From contig JACRGH010000052.1 of assembly GCA_016212375.1 (NCBI GenBank), positions 1 through 59,325 of the forward strand: DNA of 59,325 nucleotides, given 5' to 3'. The notes under the pieces are model-generated. The model saw only the letters and a program-made list of their open reading frames with translations. It was not told the origin of the DNA and ran no database searches. The position numbers and the translations under genes were made by a program. This document shows, piece after piece, positions 33,468-40,116 of this stretch; within the stretch, counting starts at the first letter, position 1; every line of letters starts with the position of its first letter. Source of the stretch: Candidatus Micrarchaeota archaeon. GTDB lineage: Archaea > Micrarchaeota > Micrarchaeia > Norongarragalinales > Norongarragalinaceae.

Positions 33468-33980
33468 TCAATAAACGCTCATCTTTTTGACGCACGACAA
33501 TCCTGACAATTCGCCCAACACTTTCACCGGCGGTTTGCGCTGCAGAACGATGAACAGTTTGGGTGATTCGAACAACTCCGGATCCTGCGACAAAATCTGC
33601 CGGATGGCCACTTTATGGTCGGCCAAAAGGGCGGTGATCTCCGCCACCACTCCGCATTTGGACGCTACAGATGCGGGCGGCTCCAATTCCAACACCGTCA
33701 GACCCAACGCGGCGGCATTCTGTACGAATAAGGGCCCGGCCGGCTGGAGGCTTTCAAAGACCGGCCTCAGGAAAGCATCGGACTCAATCCGAACCACGGT
33801 GGCTGCAACAACGCGCCGGTCCACGCCGCAGCTTTGGGCCAACGACACGTCCTTGACTTCAACGCCGCCAGAATTGATGGACCCATTTCGCACCGAAAGG
33901 CCCAAGGCCAACATTTTTTCAGCGACAGATCGTTGAGCGGGAAAATCCGCGAACGACGCCCGAACACGCTCCAGAATCAT
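33468..33980 (-). CDS. trpY: TrpY-like HTH-ACT regulator, divergent from trpE
   Basis: FADFPAQRSVAEKML; LAQSCGVDRRVV; C-terminal ACT (IRQILSQDPEL); same arrangement as trpY/trpE in methanogens. Confidence 0.8.
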   Translation of the reverse strand: MILERVRASFADFPAQRSVAEKMLALGLSVRNGSINSGGVEVKDVSLAQSCGVDRRVVAATVVRIESDAFLRPVFESLQPAGPLFVQNAAALGLTVLELEPPASVASKCGVVAEITALLADHKVAIRQILSQDPELFESPKLFIVLQRKPPVKVLGELSGLSCVKKMSVY

Positions 33981-33982
33981 GA

Positions 33983-34018
33983 TGAACAATAATGTACAAC
34001 ATAGATATAAATAGTACG
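33983..34018. promoter_or_regulatory. TRP-box-like hexamers overlapping the trpY/trpE promoter region
   Basis: TGAACA-N4-TGTACA-N4-AGATAT-N4-AGTACG versus consensus TGTACA; TATAAATA overlaps. Confidence 0.6.
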
Positions 34019-34131
34019 TCGGCCCCAAGGGACGAAGCAAGATAAGCGTAACGGGGCAGAAGTCGAAAGCGTCGGAAAAATAAGACGAAAAAGACACGAC
34101 GAAAAGCAATAGAAAATATCAATACGAGGAT

Positions 34132-34224
34132 ATGACGATGGAAAGCGGAGAGGGTTTTCTTTGGCCTGCGACACGACTTCCAGTCCCAACCCTTGGATTT
34201 GAAAGACCCACTTGGCGCGTTTGA
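34132..34224 (+). other. Zero-frame uORF (MTMESGEGFLWPATRLPVPTLGFERPTWRV) with candidate +1 frameshift site CTT TGG C at 34159..34165
   Basis: SD GAGGA at 34126; ATG 34132/34138; two Trp codons; +1 frame from 34160 is continuous with TrpE. Confidence 0.6.
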
Positions 34225-35542
34225 GTCCCTGTACGACCAATGCCAAAACTGCTTTTTGTTGGAATCGTTTGAGCAGGACGGCACGCTTGGTCGGTTTTCC
34301 TATGTGGGCTTCAACCCCAAAACCACGGTGCAAGTCAAGGACGGCGTCATCCGCGTCGGCACCGAGGAATTGGAACAAGACCCCTTCGCGTTCTTGAAAA
34401 GCTATTGCACCTCAAGCTCCCGACAGGGTTTCCGCGGCGGATTGGTCGGTTACCTCGCACACGATGCCATCCAGTACGTCGAGGATTTCAAGCCAAAGCG
34501 AGGCACCTTTGCAGACATGGAATTCGGCCTTTACCTCGATGGCTTGGTCTTTGACCACCTCAACCACACGGCGCGCTACGTCACATATGGCGAAAATCGC
34601 TTGGACGAATTGCAAAAATTGCTATCCCAGGGAAAAGTTGACCCCACAATAGATCAGAACGCAACCGAACAACCAACGGCCAAACTCTTCGACCCTTTTG
34701 TCAACCAGAACGCATATTGCCAAAGCGTTCTGCAAGCACAGGAGTCCATCCGTGCCGGCGATGCATTCCAAGTGGTCCTATCCCGGAAATTTCCAGTCCG
34801 CATTCGCGGCTCTAAGATGCCATTTTACAAGCGGCTTCGTGCGACGAACCCATCCCCTTACCAATACGTGTTGAAAATGGGCCAGCGGGAAATCATCGGC
34901 TCAAGCCCCGAGATGCTCATCCGGGTGGAAAACAAAAAAGCCACCACGTTTCCCATTGCCGGCACCCGGCCCCGCGGACGCAACCCAGACGAGGACGCCC
35001 GATTGGCGGCCGAACTGAAAGCGGACCCAAAGGAAAACGCGGAACACGCCATGTTAGTGGATTTGGCCCGAAACGACATCGGCCGCGCATCGAAGCCGGG
35101 CACCGTCAAAGTCGAACGTTACGCCGAAATCAAGAAATTCAGCCACGTCCAGCACCTGGTGTCCGAAGTCAGCGGCACCCTGAACGGGACGGCCGCCGAC
35201 GGCTTAAAATCCGTGTTTCCGGCCGGCACCCTATCGGGCGCGCCGAAGCTTTCCGCACTCAAAATCATCGACCGACTTGAACCGCAAGCGCGCGGGCCCT
35301 ATGGCGGTGCCGTGGGATTTTTGTCCCTCGACGGAAGCGGCGATTTTGCCATTTCCATCCGCACGCTGTTTTGCGATGGGGAAGCCGGATTCGTGCAAGC
35401 CGGAGCCGGGATTGTCCAGGATTCCGTTCCGGAAAACGAGTTCCAAGAGACGCAAATCAAAGCACAGGCGTTGTTGGATTGTTTGAAACCGCAAGGAAAA
35501 GACGAAAACGAAAAAACAAAAACGCGAAACGCCAAGTTGTGA
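34132..35542 (+). CDS. trpE: Anthranilate synthase component I (start probably via +1 frameshift; otherwise TTG 34193)
   Basis: LLES; GDAFQVVLS; NPSPY; GSSPE; PIAGTRPRG; EHAMLVDLARND; FPAGTLSGAPK. Confidence 0.93.
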
Positions 35543-35544
35543 AC

Positions 35545-35757
35545 ACCATGGCACCCCGACTCCCCATATTGGACAACTTCGACTCATTCACCTACAACCT
35601 AGTCCAATTATTCCAAACGGTCGCCCCGGGGGAAGCATACCCCCTGGCCCGGCCTGGGCCTCGCCCCCTTCCGTGACGAAAACCATGGCACCCCGACTCC
35701 TCATATTGGACAACTTCGACTCATTCACCTACAACCTAGTCCAGTTATTCCAAACGG
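35545..35757 (+). repeat. 76-bp direct repeat of the trpG 5' end (35545..35620 and 35682..35757)
   Basis: 74/76 identical; separated by a GC-rich hairpin spacer. Confidence 0.9.
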
Positions 35758-36257
35758 CAGGGGCTGAATGCCTCGTATTCCGCAATACCGTTTCGTTCGA
35801 CCAAGTCCTTCGGTTGAAGCCGGACGCCGTCGTGATTTCTCCCGGCCCTGGAACCGTGGAAAATGCCAAAGATTTCGGCGTGTGCGCCCGCGTCATCAAA
35901 GAATTCGAAAAACCGATTTTGGGAGTCTGCTTGGGCCATCAGGGCATCGCCTACGCGTATGGCGCCAAGATCGTGCGGACCACGCCGGTGCATGGAAAAA
36001 CCAGCATCATCACGCACGATGGCACCGGCCTGTTTGCGGGCGTGAAGAATCCGCTCCAAGTGGCCAGATACCACTCTTTAGTCGTAGACCCCGCCTCGGT
36101 GCCGGAAGTCCTGACGGTCACAGCCAAGACTCAAGACGGCCAAATCATGGCACTCCAACACAACGAAAAACCGCAATACGGCGTGCAATTCCATCCCGAA
36201 TCATTTATCACGGAAGATGGAAAGAAAACGGCGGATAATTTCCTGAAACTGATTTGA
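35673..36257 (+). CDS. trpG: Anthranilate synthase component II
   Basis: LDNFDSFTYNL; ISPGPG; GVCLGHQ; RYHSL; GVQFHPES. Confidence 0.95.
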   Translation: MTKTMAPRLLILDNFDSFTYNLVQLFQTAGAECLVFRNTVSFDQVLRLKPDAVVISPGPGTVENAKDFGVCARVIKEFEKPILGVCLGHQGIAYAYGAKIVRTTPVHGKTSIITHDGTGLFAGVKNPLQVARYHSLVVDPASVPEVLTVTAKTQDGQIMALQHNEKPQYGVQFHPESFITEDGKKTADNFLKLI

Positions 36258-36312
36258 AACCCAACCGGACGAAATTGAGTCAAACACATCAACACATCAA
36301 AAGGTTCCAAAA

Positions 36313-37308
36313 ATGCAAACCCCACTCACCCGACTCCAAAATAACGCCGATTTGGACGAAAAACAGGCCCAGGAGCTTGCGGACGGTTTCTTTGACGGCA
36401 CGTTGGACGAAGCCCAAATGAAAGAATCATTGCTTGCGCTCAATGCCAAAGGCATTACCGTGGACGAGCTCGTAGGATTTGCCCAAAGCATGCGACAACA
36501 CGGAGTGCATATCCAAACGAAAACGCCGTGCGCCGACACCTGCGGCACCGGCGGCGACGGCCTAAAGACGTTCAACATCTCCACCGCGGCCGCATTTGTG
36601 GTCACGGCATGCGGCGTCTCCGTTGCAAAACACGGGAACCGCTCGGTGTCAAGCCAAACCGGCTCGGCCGACGTCTTGGAAGCATTGGGCGTGCGCGTCA
36701 ACTTACCGCCGGAAAAGACAACGCAGATGATTGATACCGTCGGATTCGGCTTTTTGTTCGCCCCAACCTACCATCCGGCGATGAAGCGCGTAGCACCGGT
36801 GCGAAAAGCATTGGGCGTCAAGACGATTTTCAACATGCTTGGGCCCCTGACGAACCCCGCAAGCGCCGCGTACCAAGTCATCGGCACCTACAACCCCGAA
36901 TGCCAGGACAAAATGGCGCATGCCGTCACACGCGTGGGCATCCGCCGGGCCTTGGTAGTGCACGGCAACGGCATGGATGAAGCGGGTTTTGGCATCAGCC
37001 GCATCTTGGACGTAACCGGTGGAAAAATTGAAGAAAGCAATTTGGATGCCGCCTCGCTGGGCATTACCGGAACGATTACGGATTTGACGGTACGGAATGC
37101 GGCAGAGAGCGCCACCAAAATCCGGAAAGCCTTGAGCTCCGCGGACAAAATGGAGACGCAAATCGTCTGCCTCAACGCGGCATTGGCATTGGTCGCCGCA
37201 GGTAAGGCCAAGGATGCCCATGAAGGCTTTCACCAAGCGCGAAAAGCGGTGAGCACCGGTTGGGCCATGAAAAAACTGCAGGAAAGCGTGGAGGCCGGAC
37301 GCGAATGA
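36313..37308 (+). CDS. trpD: Anthranilate phosphoribosyltransferase
   Basis: DTCGTGGDG; NIST; KHGNRS; GSADVLE; FNMLGPLTNP. Confidence 0.95.
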   Translation: MQTPLTRLQNNADLDEKQAQELADGFFDGTLDEAQMKESLLALNAKGITVDELVGFAQSMRQHGVHIQTKTPCADTCGTGGDGLKTFNISTAAAFVVTACGVSVAKHGNRSVSSQTGSADVLEALGVRVNLPPEKTTQMIDTVGFGFLFAPTYHPAMKRVAPVRKALGVKTIFNMLGPLTNPASAAYQVIGTYNPECQDKMAHAVTRVGIRRALVVHGNGMDEAGFGISRILDVTGGKIEESNLDAASLGITGTITDLTVRNAAESATKIRKALSSADKMETQIVCLNAALALVAAGKAKDAHEGFHQARKAVSTGWAMKKLQESVEAGRE

Positions 37309-38126
37309 ATTTTTTGGACGACGTGTTGGATGGAGTTCGGCAAAGCCTGGTTGACGGCTACTATGAAGTCGGAAAAATGGAACCAGATGCAGAATCGCGA
37401 ACGCAAGGAAAAAAATCACTCAAAACCGAATTGCAACAAAGATTCAGCATTATTGCCGAAATCAAGCCGCGCTCGCCCACCGCCGGAGTGCTGTACCAAG
37501 GCTCAGCCGCGGATTTGGCCAAAACCTATGCCGAAGCGGGAGCAGGCGCATTGAGCGTGTTGTGCGAGTCGAAGCGCTTCAACGGCCGACTTGAAAATCT
37601 GACGGAAGCGAAAACAGCAGCGACGCACTTGCCCGTTTTGGCCAAGGATTTCGTAATTTCGAAAAAACAGCTGCAGGCCTATGCCGCGCATGGCGCAGAT
37701 GCCGCCCTTTTGATTTACGAGCTTTTCGAGCACAAAAAGACCAACGTGCCATTGGAAGCTATGATTGACGCGGCGCACGAATTGGGACTCGAAGTCTTGT
37801 TGGAAGTGCACGGTGCCAAAGACCTGGACGAGGCGCTCAAGAGCAAAGCCGACGTCATCGGCATCAACAACCGGAATTTGGATGATTTGTCGCTCAACAT
37901 GCTTCATTTCCAGAACGTGTTATCGGAAAGCGGCGTGGACATTGAAAAAATAACGGCCGAAGGAAAAGCCCTCATCGCCGAAAGCGGATTTGTTAGCGCC
38001 GCGGACGTGCAGATGGCCCGCGATGTCGGATTGAACGGCATCCTAATTGGCACCGGCCTTCTGAAGAACAAAGACCCCGCCTTCGCATTGAAACAACTCA
38101 CAAAAATAACGAAACAAACGAGGTAA
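37305..38126 (+). CDS. trpC: Indole-3-glycerol phosphate synthase
   Basis: IAEIKPRSP; LSVL; KDF; GINNRNL; AESG. Confidence 0.93.
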
Positions 38127-38134
38127 ACAGCAAA

Positions 38135-39343
38135 ATGACATATTTTGGAGAATTTGGCGGACTGTTTGTTCCGGAAACACTGGTCAGCCCGCTTCAAGCG
38201 ATTTCAGAGGCGTACGAAAATGCCAAAAAAGATCCGGCGTTCCAAAGTGAGTTCCAACGGCTTTTACGCGAGTACGCGGGACGGCCGTCCATGCTGTACT
38301 TTGCAAAAAACCTATCCGTTAAGTACGGCTGCCGCATCTACCTCAAACGGGAGGACTTGCTGCACACCGGCTCGCACAAAATCAACAACGCGTTGGGACA
38401 GGCCTTGCTTGCCAAATCCATGGGCAAAACGCGCGTCATCGCGGAAACCGGTGCGGGACAGCATGGCGTGGCGTGCGCCACGGTCTGCGCCCTGATGGGT
38501 TTGAAATGCGTCGTGTACATGGGCTCGGAAGACGTCATCCGCCAAAACTTGAACGTCCAGCGGATGCGCCTATTGGGCGCCACCGTGGTGCCGGTCGAAT
38601 CCGGAACCAAAACCTTGAAAGATGCCATCAACGAAGCCCTCCGGGACTTCGTGGCGAATCCCGACAGCTATTACCTCATCGGCTCAGCCGTGGGCCCGAC
38701 GCCGTATCCGGAAATGGTGCGGGATTTCCAGCGGGCCATCGGCGATGAGACCAAAGCCCAAATCCTCAAAGCCGAAGGGCGGCTTCCGGACGCCGTGGTG
38801 GCCTGCGTGGGCGGGGGCAGCAATGCGATAGGCATGTTTTATTCGTTCAAAGACGACCAAAGCGTCAAAAAAATCGGCGTGGAAGCATATGGCGCGGCAT
38901 CGTTGGGTTACGGCCAGACGGGCGTGCTGCACGGTGCGAAAACCAAAATTTTGCAGGACAGCGACGGACAAATTTCCGGCACGCACAGTATTTCGGCCGG
39001 ACTGGATTATTCCGCCGTGGGGCCGGAGCATGCTTTTTTCCAATCGGCTGGAATCGCGAAATACGTTTCCGCCAACGACGAGGACGCGCTTTTCGGCTTC
39101 AAGGAACTTTCCCTACAAGAAGGCATCATTCCGGCACTGGAATCGGCACACGCCGTGGCCCATGGCCTCAAAGTGGCCAAAACCATGACCAAAGACCAGA
39201 TTCTCGTCATCAATTTGTCCGGACGCGGAGACAAAGATGCGCATGCATTGGAAGCTCTTGGAAAAGAAAAAGAGCCGTCGGCGTGGGGAAAAAATGAAAT
39301 AACCAAAATAAATGCCAAAACAACGGAGGCGAACAATCAATGA
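38135..39343 (+). CDS. trpB: Tryptophan synthase beta chain (TrpB1)
   Basis: [16 protein letters not shown]; AETGAGQHG; GGGSN; SAGLDY; NLSGRGDKD. Confidence 0.97.
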
Positions 39344-40116
39344 AATTCTCCGAACTTTTCAAAACCAAAAAATTTGCCTTCCTACCATACGTTTGCTTAG
39401 GTTACCCCACACTCGAAAAAAGCCTGGACCTAGTGCGGGCCTTGGAACCGTACGCGGATGGCTTTGAGCTCGGTATCCCTTTTTCCGATCCGGTGGCCGA
39501 CGGACCCGTTCTGCAGAAAGCCGCCCAGAGTGCCCTAGAGGCCGGTTTTAAAGTCAGCCAGACGTTTGACGCGGTGCGGGTGGTCCGCCGGTTCACGCAA
39601 AAACCAATCGCCATCATGACGTACTTGAATCCGGTTTTGGCCCACGGATTACAGCGTTTCGTTGACGAGGCGCATGCCACGGGAGCCGATGCGCTCATCA
39701 TACCGGATGCGCCGATGGAAGAAATCGGACCGGTCCAGGCCGCGTGTGCCGGAAAACTGGAAGTGCCGTTATTTGTCACCCCCACCACGCCGAAAGCGCG
39801 CGCCGGGAAAATCGCCCAAAGCGCACAAGGATTCATCTACGGCATTGCAATCAAAGGCGTCACAGGCGCACGCAAAGAAACCGAAATGGACGGCATGGGT
39901 GCCGACGTCAAGGCATTGGTGGAAAAAACGTCCGACATGGGTTTCCAGATTCCGGTGGTCTTTGGTTTCGGGATTTCAAACGCAAAGCATGCAAAAGCGG
40001 TCCAAAACGCCGGAGCCGCCGGTTTCATCATCGGTAGCCGCATCGTCCAGGCCTACGAGGAAGACGGATTGGAGGGCGTGAAAACATGGGTACAATCGCT
40101 AACCTTAAAAACGTGA
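39340..40116 (+). CDS. trpA: Tryptophan synthase alpha chain
   Basis: [14 protein letters not shown]; MTYLN; GVTG; GFGIS. Confidence 0.95.

Follow-up and report, generated by a model that had tools for sequence, protein, structure and literature searches.

How is anthranilate synthase component I (TrpE) made from a gene whose Shine–Dalgarno (SD)-led start codons lie in a different reading frame from the protein? The question is raised by trpE in a 59,325-nucleotide (nt) stretch of DNA (the window; GenBank assembly GCA_016212375.1, contig JACRGH010000052.1, positions 1 to 59,325 of the forward strand) from Candidatus Micrarchaeota archaeon, an archaeal metagenome-assembled genome (MAG; G000 below) of 1.34 Mb that is 82% complete in 75 contigs. 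The open reading frame (ORF) at 34163-35542 (+ strand; 459 amino acids (aa) plus stop, with zero Trp residues) contains the Pfam domains Anth_synt_I_N (1.6e-24) and Chorismate_bind (3.4e-88), and with both domains and a setting within a trp operon it is a TrpE gene; the best NCBIfam model is TIGR01820 TrpE-arch at 454.6 bits, below its cut-off of 512. Its frame is closed upstream by a TGA (34133-34135, + strand), and the earliest conventional start codon thereafter, whether ATG, GTG or TTG, is a TTG at 34193-34195 (+ strand). An SD-like GAGGAT (34126-34131, + strand) stands 6 nt before an ATG at 34138-34140, which has a further ATG in its own frame at 34132-34134. This leader frame, relative to which the TrpE frame is +1 (the leader ATGs being thus -1 relative to TrpE), reads ATG ACG ATG GAA AGC GGA GAG GGT TTT CTT TGG CCT from 34132 and closes at a TGA at 34222-34224, giving a zero-frame leader ORF (MESGEGFLW..., 34138-34224, + strand; 30 aa counted from 34132) that is a dead end without a shift. 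Within it, CTT (34159-34161) and TGG (34162-34164) belong to the heptamer CTT TGG C (34159-34165, + strand), in which T34162 is the base proposed to be skipped and GGC (34163-34165) is the next codon. A preliminary description of this region (34126-34224), made from the sequence alone, had pointed to SD-led ATGs in another frame that stops at 34222-34224, and to a TrpE frame lacking an ATG and having as its first start a TTG at 34193 with no SD, all of which the sequence bears out. It had further proposed a +1 slip from CTT to TTT like that of bacterial prfB, with UGG in the A site, and this gains support from the recurrence of the layout elsewhere, from loci with no start codon in the TrpE frame, and from stop codons that bracket the site.

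We propose that ribosomes would initiate at the SD-led ATG 34138 (possibly at 34132) and read eight codons, M-E-S-G-E-G-F-L, placing Leu-tRNA on CUU in the P site with UGG in the A site. Slow arrival of Trp-tRNA would allow the P-site tRNA to re-pair one base forward on UUU, T34162 would be skipped, and GGC would be read next to yield the 459-residue anthranilate synthase component I; with prompt arrival of Trp-tRNA the ribosome would stay in frame and stop 20 codons later at the TGA, leaving a useless peptide of 28-30 aa. A G-rich tract ending 3 nt before CUU and complementary to the 16S 3' end would promote the slip. The net effect would be negative feedback, scarce charged tRNA-Trp giving more TrpE, in a layer acting atop transcriptional control by a divergent TrpY-like regulator. 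That +1 recoding at the NTT_TGG site is how TrpE is made appears very probable from the comparisons below, and the whole statement, +1 recoding plus Trp sensing, appears probable.

Integrity of the locus

Artefacts were checked for with assembled contigs rather than raw reads, one (X1) probably from the source sample and two (X3 and X4) from two other studies. The X1 contig, with a depth of 17, is identical to the window over 33950-34450. The X3 piece spans 34137-34245 with 4 substitutions and no gap, and the X4 piece spans 34066-34260 with 21 substitutions and 2 indels, both of the indels being upstream of the ATG. Over the parts that each covers, X3 and X4 have zero changes within 34132-34191; X4 has 9 changes just upstream of this unchanged stretch and 8 just downstream, and its changes from 34192 onward are all synonymous in the TrpE frame. 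On the identical X1 contig and the indel-free site in two diverged strains we reject a sequencing error.

The TTG at 34193 is CTG in X3, and we therefore read it as an internal leucine codon and not as a start. Further reasons to reject a TrpE start at this position are conservation of the TrpE frame upstream of it and the lack of an SD: the residues ahead of it are conserved in three members of the window's order (G001, G002 and G009), and the differences from G002 are synonymous. The preliminary description had named both a 1-nt indel and a start at this TTG as findings that would speak against recoding; no such indel is present across the site in the independent contigs, and the second runs against the CTG in a related strain.

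It might still be supposed that the offset is a one-base error in a T run, or that trpE is a pseudogene in a reduced DPANN genome. The MAG is incomplete and fragmented, there are T runs at the site, most relatives in the order are without trpE (9/68 have it), and the G009 copy is broken downstream. We nevertheless consider error or decay extremely improbable, given the identical independent contig from the likely source run, the two strains from other studies without an indel, the same one-base offset in 100 of 147 loci in five classes and in 67 of 77 metagenome contigs, and a downstream ORF that is intact over 459 codons with synonymous strain variation.

Distribution of the layout

The layout was scored as a start in the -1 frame, 4-9 codons, NTT TGG, and a GGN opening the TrpE frame. 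One script scored every retrieved 5' end, and whole archaeal classes were sampled by genome search. Left out of the counts were loci with a missing 5' end or a partial match (L013/G064, L020, L036, L049, L053, L144, L166, L207 and L211-L214), L062, which is the same record as G038, and L313, L314 and L316, which have too little sequence upstream. The pooled set of 147 loci includes the window's order but not the 20 Methanobacteria loci of lower score. Of the 147, 100 have the layout by classifier, and L121 is an additional case by eye. As a frame control, the same classifier gives 100/147 with GG in the TrpE frame versus 2/147 and 2/147 for the other two offsets, and in coding bodies the layout is found in 3 of 735 windows of 180 nt.

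In the window's Micrarchaeota-labelled order trpE is present in 9 of 68 genomes and its 5' end is visible in eight, five of which have the layout (G000, G001, G009, G030 and G042). The leader frame reads ATG GGA GTC GGT TTT CTT TGG in G001, ATG GAA GGC GGT TTA CTT TGG in G009, …GGC GGT TGT TTT TGG in G030, and GTG AAA AAA GGC GGT TGT CTT TGG in G042. The other three (G002, G031 and G038) have an in-frame ATG and no cassette. The G009 trpE keeps the cassette but has an internal deletion of ~35 codons and a frame break, with loss of the conserved AEH..LVDL.RND region (contig C42, L006/L011), and this copy may be a pseudogene, decaying, or misassembled. The alignment of related 5' regions suggested in the preliminary description thus reveals the out-of-frame layout in four other genomes of the order and in four other archaeal classes; relatives with an in-frame ATG and no motif, which it had listed as an outcome contrary to recoding, do exist, but they are a minority and the closest of them encode the predicted junction G-F-L-G.

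Among Methanobacteria 151 genomes were searched and 142 have TrpE; the layout is present in all 30 of the best-scoring loci that were scored, 29 by classifier and L121, which contains Ns, by eye. A lower-scoring TrpE type (about 50 in the same search) has a plain in-frame ATG and the layout in 0 of 20 scored loci (L240-L259); these proteins are about 500 aa long with the N-terminus M-F-S-P-S-L-E-E-V-K.... As all 20 of this second type lack the cassette, the cassette tracks one TrpE clade and not the host lineage. The layout is also present in 27 of 29 scored loci in Bathyarchaeia (121 genomes searched, 45 with TrpE), 25 of 29 in Nitrososphaeria (121 searched, 83 with TrpE), 8 of 26 in Thermoplasmata (101 searched, 41 with TrpE), and 6 of 25 new loci in the remaining orders of the window's class (301 searched, 41 with TrpE).

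Metagenome contigs have the layout in 67 of 77 cases. Among the matches listed for named genome contigs it is found in 14/14 labelled Methanobacteriaceae, 13/14 labelled Thaumarchaeota or Bathyarchaeota, and 1/19 from other archaea, with Methanomassiliicoccales among the records that show it. Among the matches listed for bacterial MAGs it is found in 3 of 28 loci, two by classifier and L034 by eye; of these three (L034, L044 and L051) two are labelled Thermotogae and one Bipolaricaulia. Each has an SD, an ATG, 11-12 codons, and GGT GAT CGG GTT TGG before an archaeal-type trpE, with a leader ORF of 18-30 aa and the cassette about 60-110 nt before the start of the match (1501); the GGTGATC is a perfect anti-SD complement and contains an in-frame GTG. 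In a quick FastTree tree of 145 TrpEs, which came with long-branch warnings, the window's TrpE clade adjoins Methanobacteria TrpE with Shimodaira–Hasegawa-like support of 99, and the cassette state changes at least 13 times.

Searching G000 for comparable cassettes, whatever their A-site codon, gave 78 hits, mostly antisense or chance ORFs; the filter dropped trpE itself, on account of TTG 34193, and the search is uninformative as to other pathways.

Position of the frame change

The 100 cassette loci have leader starts of ATG (94), GTG (3) or TTG (3), a distance of 4-9 codons from the start to the shift codon, and shift codons of CTT (47, including the window), TTT (36), GTT (12) or ATT (5). 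The leader-frame stop falls 1-46 codons past TGG among the relatives, and the leader tail is not conserved. All lineages share only TT-T-GG; the skipped base is T and the A-site codon TGG at all 100 sites. One site with C passes a relaxed classifier and is located far upstream in L182, a locus with a TGG site of its own. Because a skipped C would re-pair equally with G34 tRNAs, the invariant T points to selection for UGG. The base following TGG varies (C 50, A 39, G 6, T 5).

No ATG, GTG or TTG is present in the TrpE frame between the upstream stop and GGN in 33 of the 100 loci: 4/5 in the window's order, 22/27 in Bathyarchaeia, 5/8 in Thermoplasmata, 1/25 in Nitrososphaeria, 1/6 in the other Micrarchaeota and 0/29 in Methanobacteria. 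In the window's order the next TrpE-frame start codons lie 10, 32, 40 and 48 codons downstream, and the one at 32 codons, in G001, is within the conserved core. L158 (Nitrososphaeria) and L206 (Thermoplasmata) read …TTA GTT TGG…, with a TrpE-frame TAG immediately ahead of TTT, and L116 and L124 (both Methanobacteria) have a leader-frame TGA immediately after TGG; together these stops confine the shift to NTT_TGG or to the UGG codon itself.

The stops permit either codon, and the shift could thus come one codon later, with UGG decoded and the P-site Trp-tRNA slipping from UGG to GGN or reading UGGN as four bases; the product would carry Trp at the junction and Trp shortage would not be sensed. 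L116 and L124, where UGG is followed by UGA, have the layout of a 'shifty stop' that would suit it. Such a shift, though, leaves the invariance of the two T before the skipped T without explanation, the base after TGG is not conserved, and a CCA anticodon would be expected to re-pair poorly on GGN. The in-frame close relatives, moreover, encode no Trp at the junction: in G002 and the three metagenome relatives nearest to the window (L260-L262) the junction reads G-F-L-G, written in three different sets of codons, and this is the junction peptide predicted for G000 and G001 by a slip on NTT. We regard a shift at the later codon as highly improbable. A codon-by-codon synonymy at the junction (GGT TTT CTT in G000 and GGG TTC CTG in G002) was also considered, and is weakened by an ungapped MAFFT alignment in which the TrpE frames are aligned upstream too; the point is kept at the level of the protein.

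Transcriptional slippage as the source of the frame change is unlikely, as most sites have only three T in the run. We infer that the shift would occur on the ribosome, and that its efficiency would respond to the level of Trp-tRNA.

Initiation signals

Initiation signals appear to serve the leader-frame start and not any TrpE-frame codon. SD-like GGTGA, GGAG or GAGG sequences lie 4-8 nt before the leader-frame start in Methanobacteria, Bathyarchaeia and Micrarchaeota, and in G042 a GGTGAT is 4 nt before the leader GTG. The usual distance from TATA box to transcription start in archaea is about 30 nt. In Nitrososphaeria a TATA-like octamer starts exactly 30 nt before the leader ATG in 20 of 25 loci, which predicts a leaderless trpE mRNA, probably beginning at the leader ATG. 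As in prfB, there is a zero-frame ORF from a bona fide start and a product in the +1 frame without a start of its own.

These signals bear on whether a frameshift is needed at all. The leader ORF could be an upstream ORF encoding a Trp-containing leader peptide, with TrpE starting independently in its own frame, at a GTG four codons before GGN, at TTG 34193 in the window, at a non-canonical codon, or by re-initiation. Bacteria classically rely on leader peptides with Trp codons, gene callers can annotate such genes without a frameshift, and an in-frame GTG is present four codons before GGN in 29/29 Methanobacteria and 24/25 Nitrososphaeria. We find an independent start decidedly unlikely, as the 33 loci without any TrpE-frame ATG, GTG or TTG offer none, the next one in G001 being within the conserved core, and in L158 the GTG is followed by TAG. 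In the window TTG 34193 is CTG in the related strain, and the residues from GGC to the TTG are conserved with respect to G002 with synonymous differences. The SD or TATA spacing fits the leader ATG and not the GTG, there is no terminator-like structure, and stalling at UGG during Trp shortage would place the ribosome over the GTG and reduce TrpE output, the opposite of what regulation requires.

Several further points weigh against recoding. All of the evidence is comparative, kinship among the genomes means that counts and p-values overstate independence, and one of the five copies in the window's order (that in G009) is broken further downstream. MAFFT aligns G000 to the in-frame G002 with no gap at the site, such that the nucleotide history is ambiguous. 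TrpE could start in the ordinary way at the in-frame GTG of Methanobacteria and most Nitrososphaeria, and one subgroup of Methanobacteria has, 11 codons upstream, an in-frame ATG as well. In 67 of the 100 loci a frameshift is therefore not forced and is the unifying reading only. The spacing of the G-rich tract varies by lineage, the U that aligns with A5 of the 16S tail being separated from the P codon by 3 nt in the window's order and by about 6 nt in other lineages. There is no stable RNA structure past the site, the fold of 34126-34260 having -31.8 kcal/mol compared to a shuffle mean of -32.6 (z 0.23). The variable sites upstream in Bathyarchaeia are third positions of the TrpE frame (GGN ATH NNN TTT GGN; G-I-x-F-G), a pattern that would suit translation of the TrpE frame ahead of the site, although the stop in L206 falls at the NNN (x) position and the TrpE frame is unread there in at least one lineage. 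Finally, NTT TGG in the leader frame arises automatically from a hydrophobic-Phe-Gly N-terminus coded as NNY TTT GGN, and such an N-terminus is present in in-frame species such as L043; this coding cannot account for the leader start, the absent TrpE-frame start, the exclusive TTT, or the stops in L158 and L206.

A shift right after the start codon was considered for the G-I-x-F-G pattern of Bathyarchaeia and is rejected: there is no common slip site, L059/L199 has a TrpE-frame TGA between the ATG and the cassette, and L158 and L206 have the TAG.

The G-rich tract upstream of the site

The host 16S ribosomal RNA 3' end is ...GATCACCTCCT, and the tract GGAGAGGGT (34147-34155, + strand) is an internal G-rich element complementary to its anti-SD, ending 3 nt before the shift codon. 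RNAduplex gives -9.9 kcal/mol for this tract with GAUCACCUCCU, and so the pairing with the host 16S 3' end that the preliminary description proposed to check is present. In 87 unique contexts, the 14 nt that precede the shift codon have a mean pairing energy with the 16S tail of -7.55 kcal/mol, versus -2.88 kcal/mol for control windows of the same genes, a test that kinship inflates. The element takes lineage-specific forms: GGCGGT or GAGGGT in the window's order, [A/T]GTGAA in Methanobacteria, GGGTGGA in Nitrosopumilales, and AGGGAT or GGGGTAT in Bathyarchaeia, Thermoplasmata and other Micrarchaeota. By analogy with bacterial prfB, the tract probably stimulates the slip.

Tryptophan as the putative signal

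Sensing of Trp is the best reading of the recoding site because the gene encodes the first committed step of Trp synthesis and the waiting codon is always the single Trp codon, because the direction fits (less Trp-tRNA giving more TrpE), because an empty A site favours a +1 slip (PMC5009743), and because Trp limitation is reported to provoke frameshifting at Trp codons in human cancer cells (PMC13751296). The composition of the proteins is compatible with it. The window's TrpE has 0 Trp in 459 aa, compared to 0.98% in the long ORFs of the genome, and could therefore be completed during Trp shortage; among the trp enzymes of the window (34163-40116) there are no Trp residues in TrpE, TrpG and TrpC and one each in TrpD, TrpB and TrpA. 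No Trp is present in 66 of 99 cassette-bearing TrpEs, and since many in-frame TrpEs are likewise without it, this feature is permissive and not specific.

A real +1 frameshift at NUU_UGG could nonetheless be constitutive, providing a fixed low output of TrpE or persisting as a tolerated 'frozen accident', with UGG just a generally slow codon read by a single tRNA and control by Trp falling to TrpY and enzyme feedback inhibition. All of the support for recoding fits this equally well, and the divergent TrpY-like gene and the TGTACA/TATA block beside it already offer Trp-responsive control. A frameshift without sensing seems unlikely all the same, as UGG is in the A site at every surveyed site though CGG allows the same re-pairing, the cassette is in the first gene of the Trp pathway across five archaeal classes, and TrpE is usually free of Trp codons, as expected of a protein made during Trp shortage. 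Taking the survey as a whole, we lean towards an ancient frameshift attenuator shared by five or more archaeal classes (Micrarchaeota-labelled DPANN, Methanobacteria, Bathyarchaeia, Nitrososphaeria and Thermoplasmata) and by a few lineages of bacteria, in which TrpE would be made only on a +1 slip at NUU_U while Trp-tRNA is scarce at UGG, this UGG being 4-9 codons after the start in archaea and 12-13 in the bacterial loci.

ARAGORN finds neither a tRNA-Trp nor a tRNA-Leu for CUU in the 82%-complete G000 assembly. With introns disallowed it reports only 13 tRNA genes; allowing them raises the count to about 25, several of these having long or odd introns.

Relation to known systems

The closest likeness is to prfB, in which a CUU_U shift takes place with an internal SD (PMC5009743). 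In each, a short ORF is read in the zero frame and the main product lies in the +1 frame; the shift codon is CUU_U (in a minority UUU_U), which allows re-pairing on UUU, and the A site holds a slowly decoded codon whose decoding factor is linked to what the gene itself encodes. Each also has a tract complementary to the anti-SD a few nt ahead of the site, and each cassette is highly conserved and lost in some lineages (PMC5009743). They differ in that the trpE A-site codon is the sense codon UGG and not the stop codon UGA read by RF2, and so the trpE cassette works like prfB without being a member of it; the molecule sensed would be Trp-tRNA rather than a release factor, and the gene is for a biosynthetic enzyme. 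The trpE hosts are mostly archaea, the shift is 4-9 codons after the start compared to codon 26 in Escherichia coli prfB, GUU and AUU are also used, and the G-rich tract varies in spacing between lineages.

'Hungry' A-site codons favour +1 shifts, and the Ty1 site is CUU_AGG_C (PMC5009743), a heptamer nearly identical to the CUU_UGG_C of the window, with a Leu-tRNA slip on CUU, a slow sense codon in the A site, and GGC next. Ty1, a eukaryotic retrotransposon, differs in its use of a rare Arg codon for a Gag-Pol fusion at a fixed ratio with no feedback sensing. The +1 frameshift of antizyme is likewise sensor and effector of negative feedback on a biosynthetic pathway (PMC5009743), but there a small molecule is sensed at the stop codon ending ORF1, the product is an inhibitor and not an enzyme, and the hosts are eukaryotes only. 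In human cancer cells limiting tryptophan is reported to induce frameshifting at Trp codons, and this shared response of a frame shift at UGG to Trp shortage is treated in PMC13751296 as mistranslation, not as a conserved gene-expression cassette. The trpE cassette, as an autoregulatory +1 frameshift with a sense-codon, aminoacyl-tRNA input, is supported as real well beyond the window.

In bacterial trp attenuation, translation of the TrpL leader across Trp codons reports on charged tRNA-Trp. To our knowledge, Archaea are without the coupled terminator hairpins of this type of attenuation. The trpE cassette shares with trpL a short leader ORF before trpE and passage over a Trp codon that would set the output of the operon. 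It differs in having, in the window, a single conserved TGG with no tandem Trp codons and no terminator or antiterminator structure; its leader overlaps and fuses to TrpE, and what it is proposed to alter is the reading frame, where leader-peptide attenuation of the bacterial trp operon (PMC6614838) alters whether transcription continues.

The regulation of Trp synthesis in archaea is presented in PMC6737238 as little known apart from the repressor TrpY, and a 2021 review of archaeal recoding has very few cases of programmed frameshifting and none in trp genes (PMC8211752). Full-text literature searches, with supplementary tables outside their scope, found no publication linking trpE or anthranilate synthase with programmed frameshifting. 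The words 'anthranilate' and 'trpE' are absent from the excerpted text of PMC5009743 and from the main texts of PMC8211752 and the GeneTack survey PMC3711429, although anthranilate synthase might appear in the GeneTack cluster tables that accompany PMC3711429 and PMC3531167. This agrees with the remark in the preliminary description that no natural example had been described, and the layout extends far wider than the window in which it was noted.

If correct, programmed frameshifting would for the first time be known to control the biosynthetic pathway of an amino acid, in an archaeal counterpart of bacterial leader-peptide attenuation. The cassette would be a clear case of programmed +1 frameshifting in archaeal cellular genes, would join the few autoregulatory frameshifts (prfB and antizyme) as one that works at a sense codon and senses an amino acid, and would constitute a simple translational sensor of charged tRNA, turning 'waiting for Trp-tRNA' into 'make TrpE'. 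The trpE starts of many genomes, including cultured methanogens and ammonia oxidisers, are probably misannotated, as a GTG, a truncated start or a pseudogene. The cassette is short enough for a portable Trp-responsive switch, and the search logic (a start, a few codons, NUU, a codon for amino acid X, and a +1 ORF of the X pathway) is transferable.

The trp operon and its promoter region

The genes trpG, trpD, trpC, trpB and trpA follow trpE at 35673-40116 (+ strand), with the Pfam domains GATase, Glycos_transf_3, IGPS, PALP and Trp_syntA, and beyond trpA are genes for 3-deoxy-D-arabino-heptulosonate 7-phosphate synthase and dehydroquinate synthase. To the left, a divergent trpY-like regulator gene of 170 aa (33468-33980, - strand) matches the NCBIfam family TrpY_fam (NF053754; E 3.3e-41) at 141 bits, below the cut-off of 180; the protein has no Pfam match. 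The shared promoter zone (33993-34017) contains TGTACA (33993-33998), which we take to be the TRP box consensus, a TATA-like ATATAAATA (34005-34013) and GTAC (34014-34017). The TGTACA/TATA block is nearly identical in G001, G002, G009 and Methanobacteria. The putative TrpY-family gene, with its sub-cut-off score, beside the candidate TRP box/TATA block is a Methanothermobacter-type layout, and there are hints that the whole regulated operon was transferred between Methanobacteria and the window's DPANN lineage. The name 'TRP box' is from PMC6737238.

Between the promoter and the trpE start is a purine-rich stretch of ~100 nt (34020-34125, + strand; AT skew 0.37-0.38) that is absent from G001, G002 and G009; it may be a long 5' leader or a second promoter site. 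In those three genomes the start is ~23-38 nt past the TATA box, and in the X4 strain the purine-rich stretch has many substitutions and two indels. Within the operon, the longest trpC ORF (from TTG 37260) overlaps the end of trpD by 49 nt (37260-37308), and the true trpC start is therefore probably later. The trpG start is 130 nt past the trpE stop and is not obviously coupled to trpE translation.

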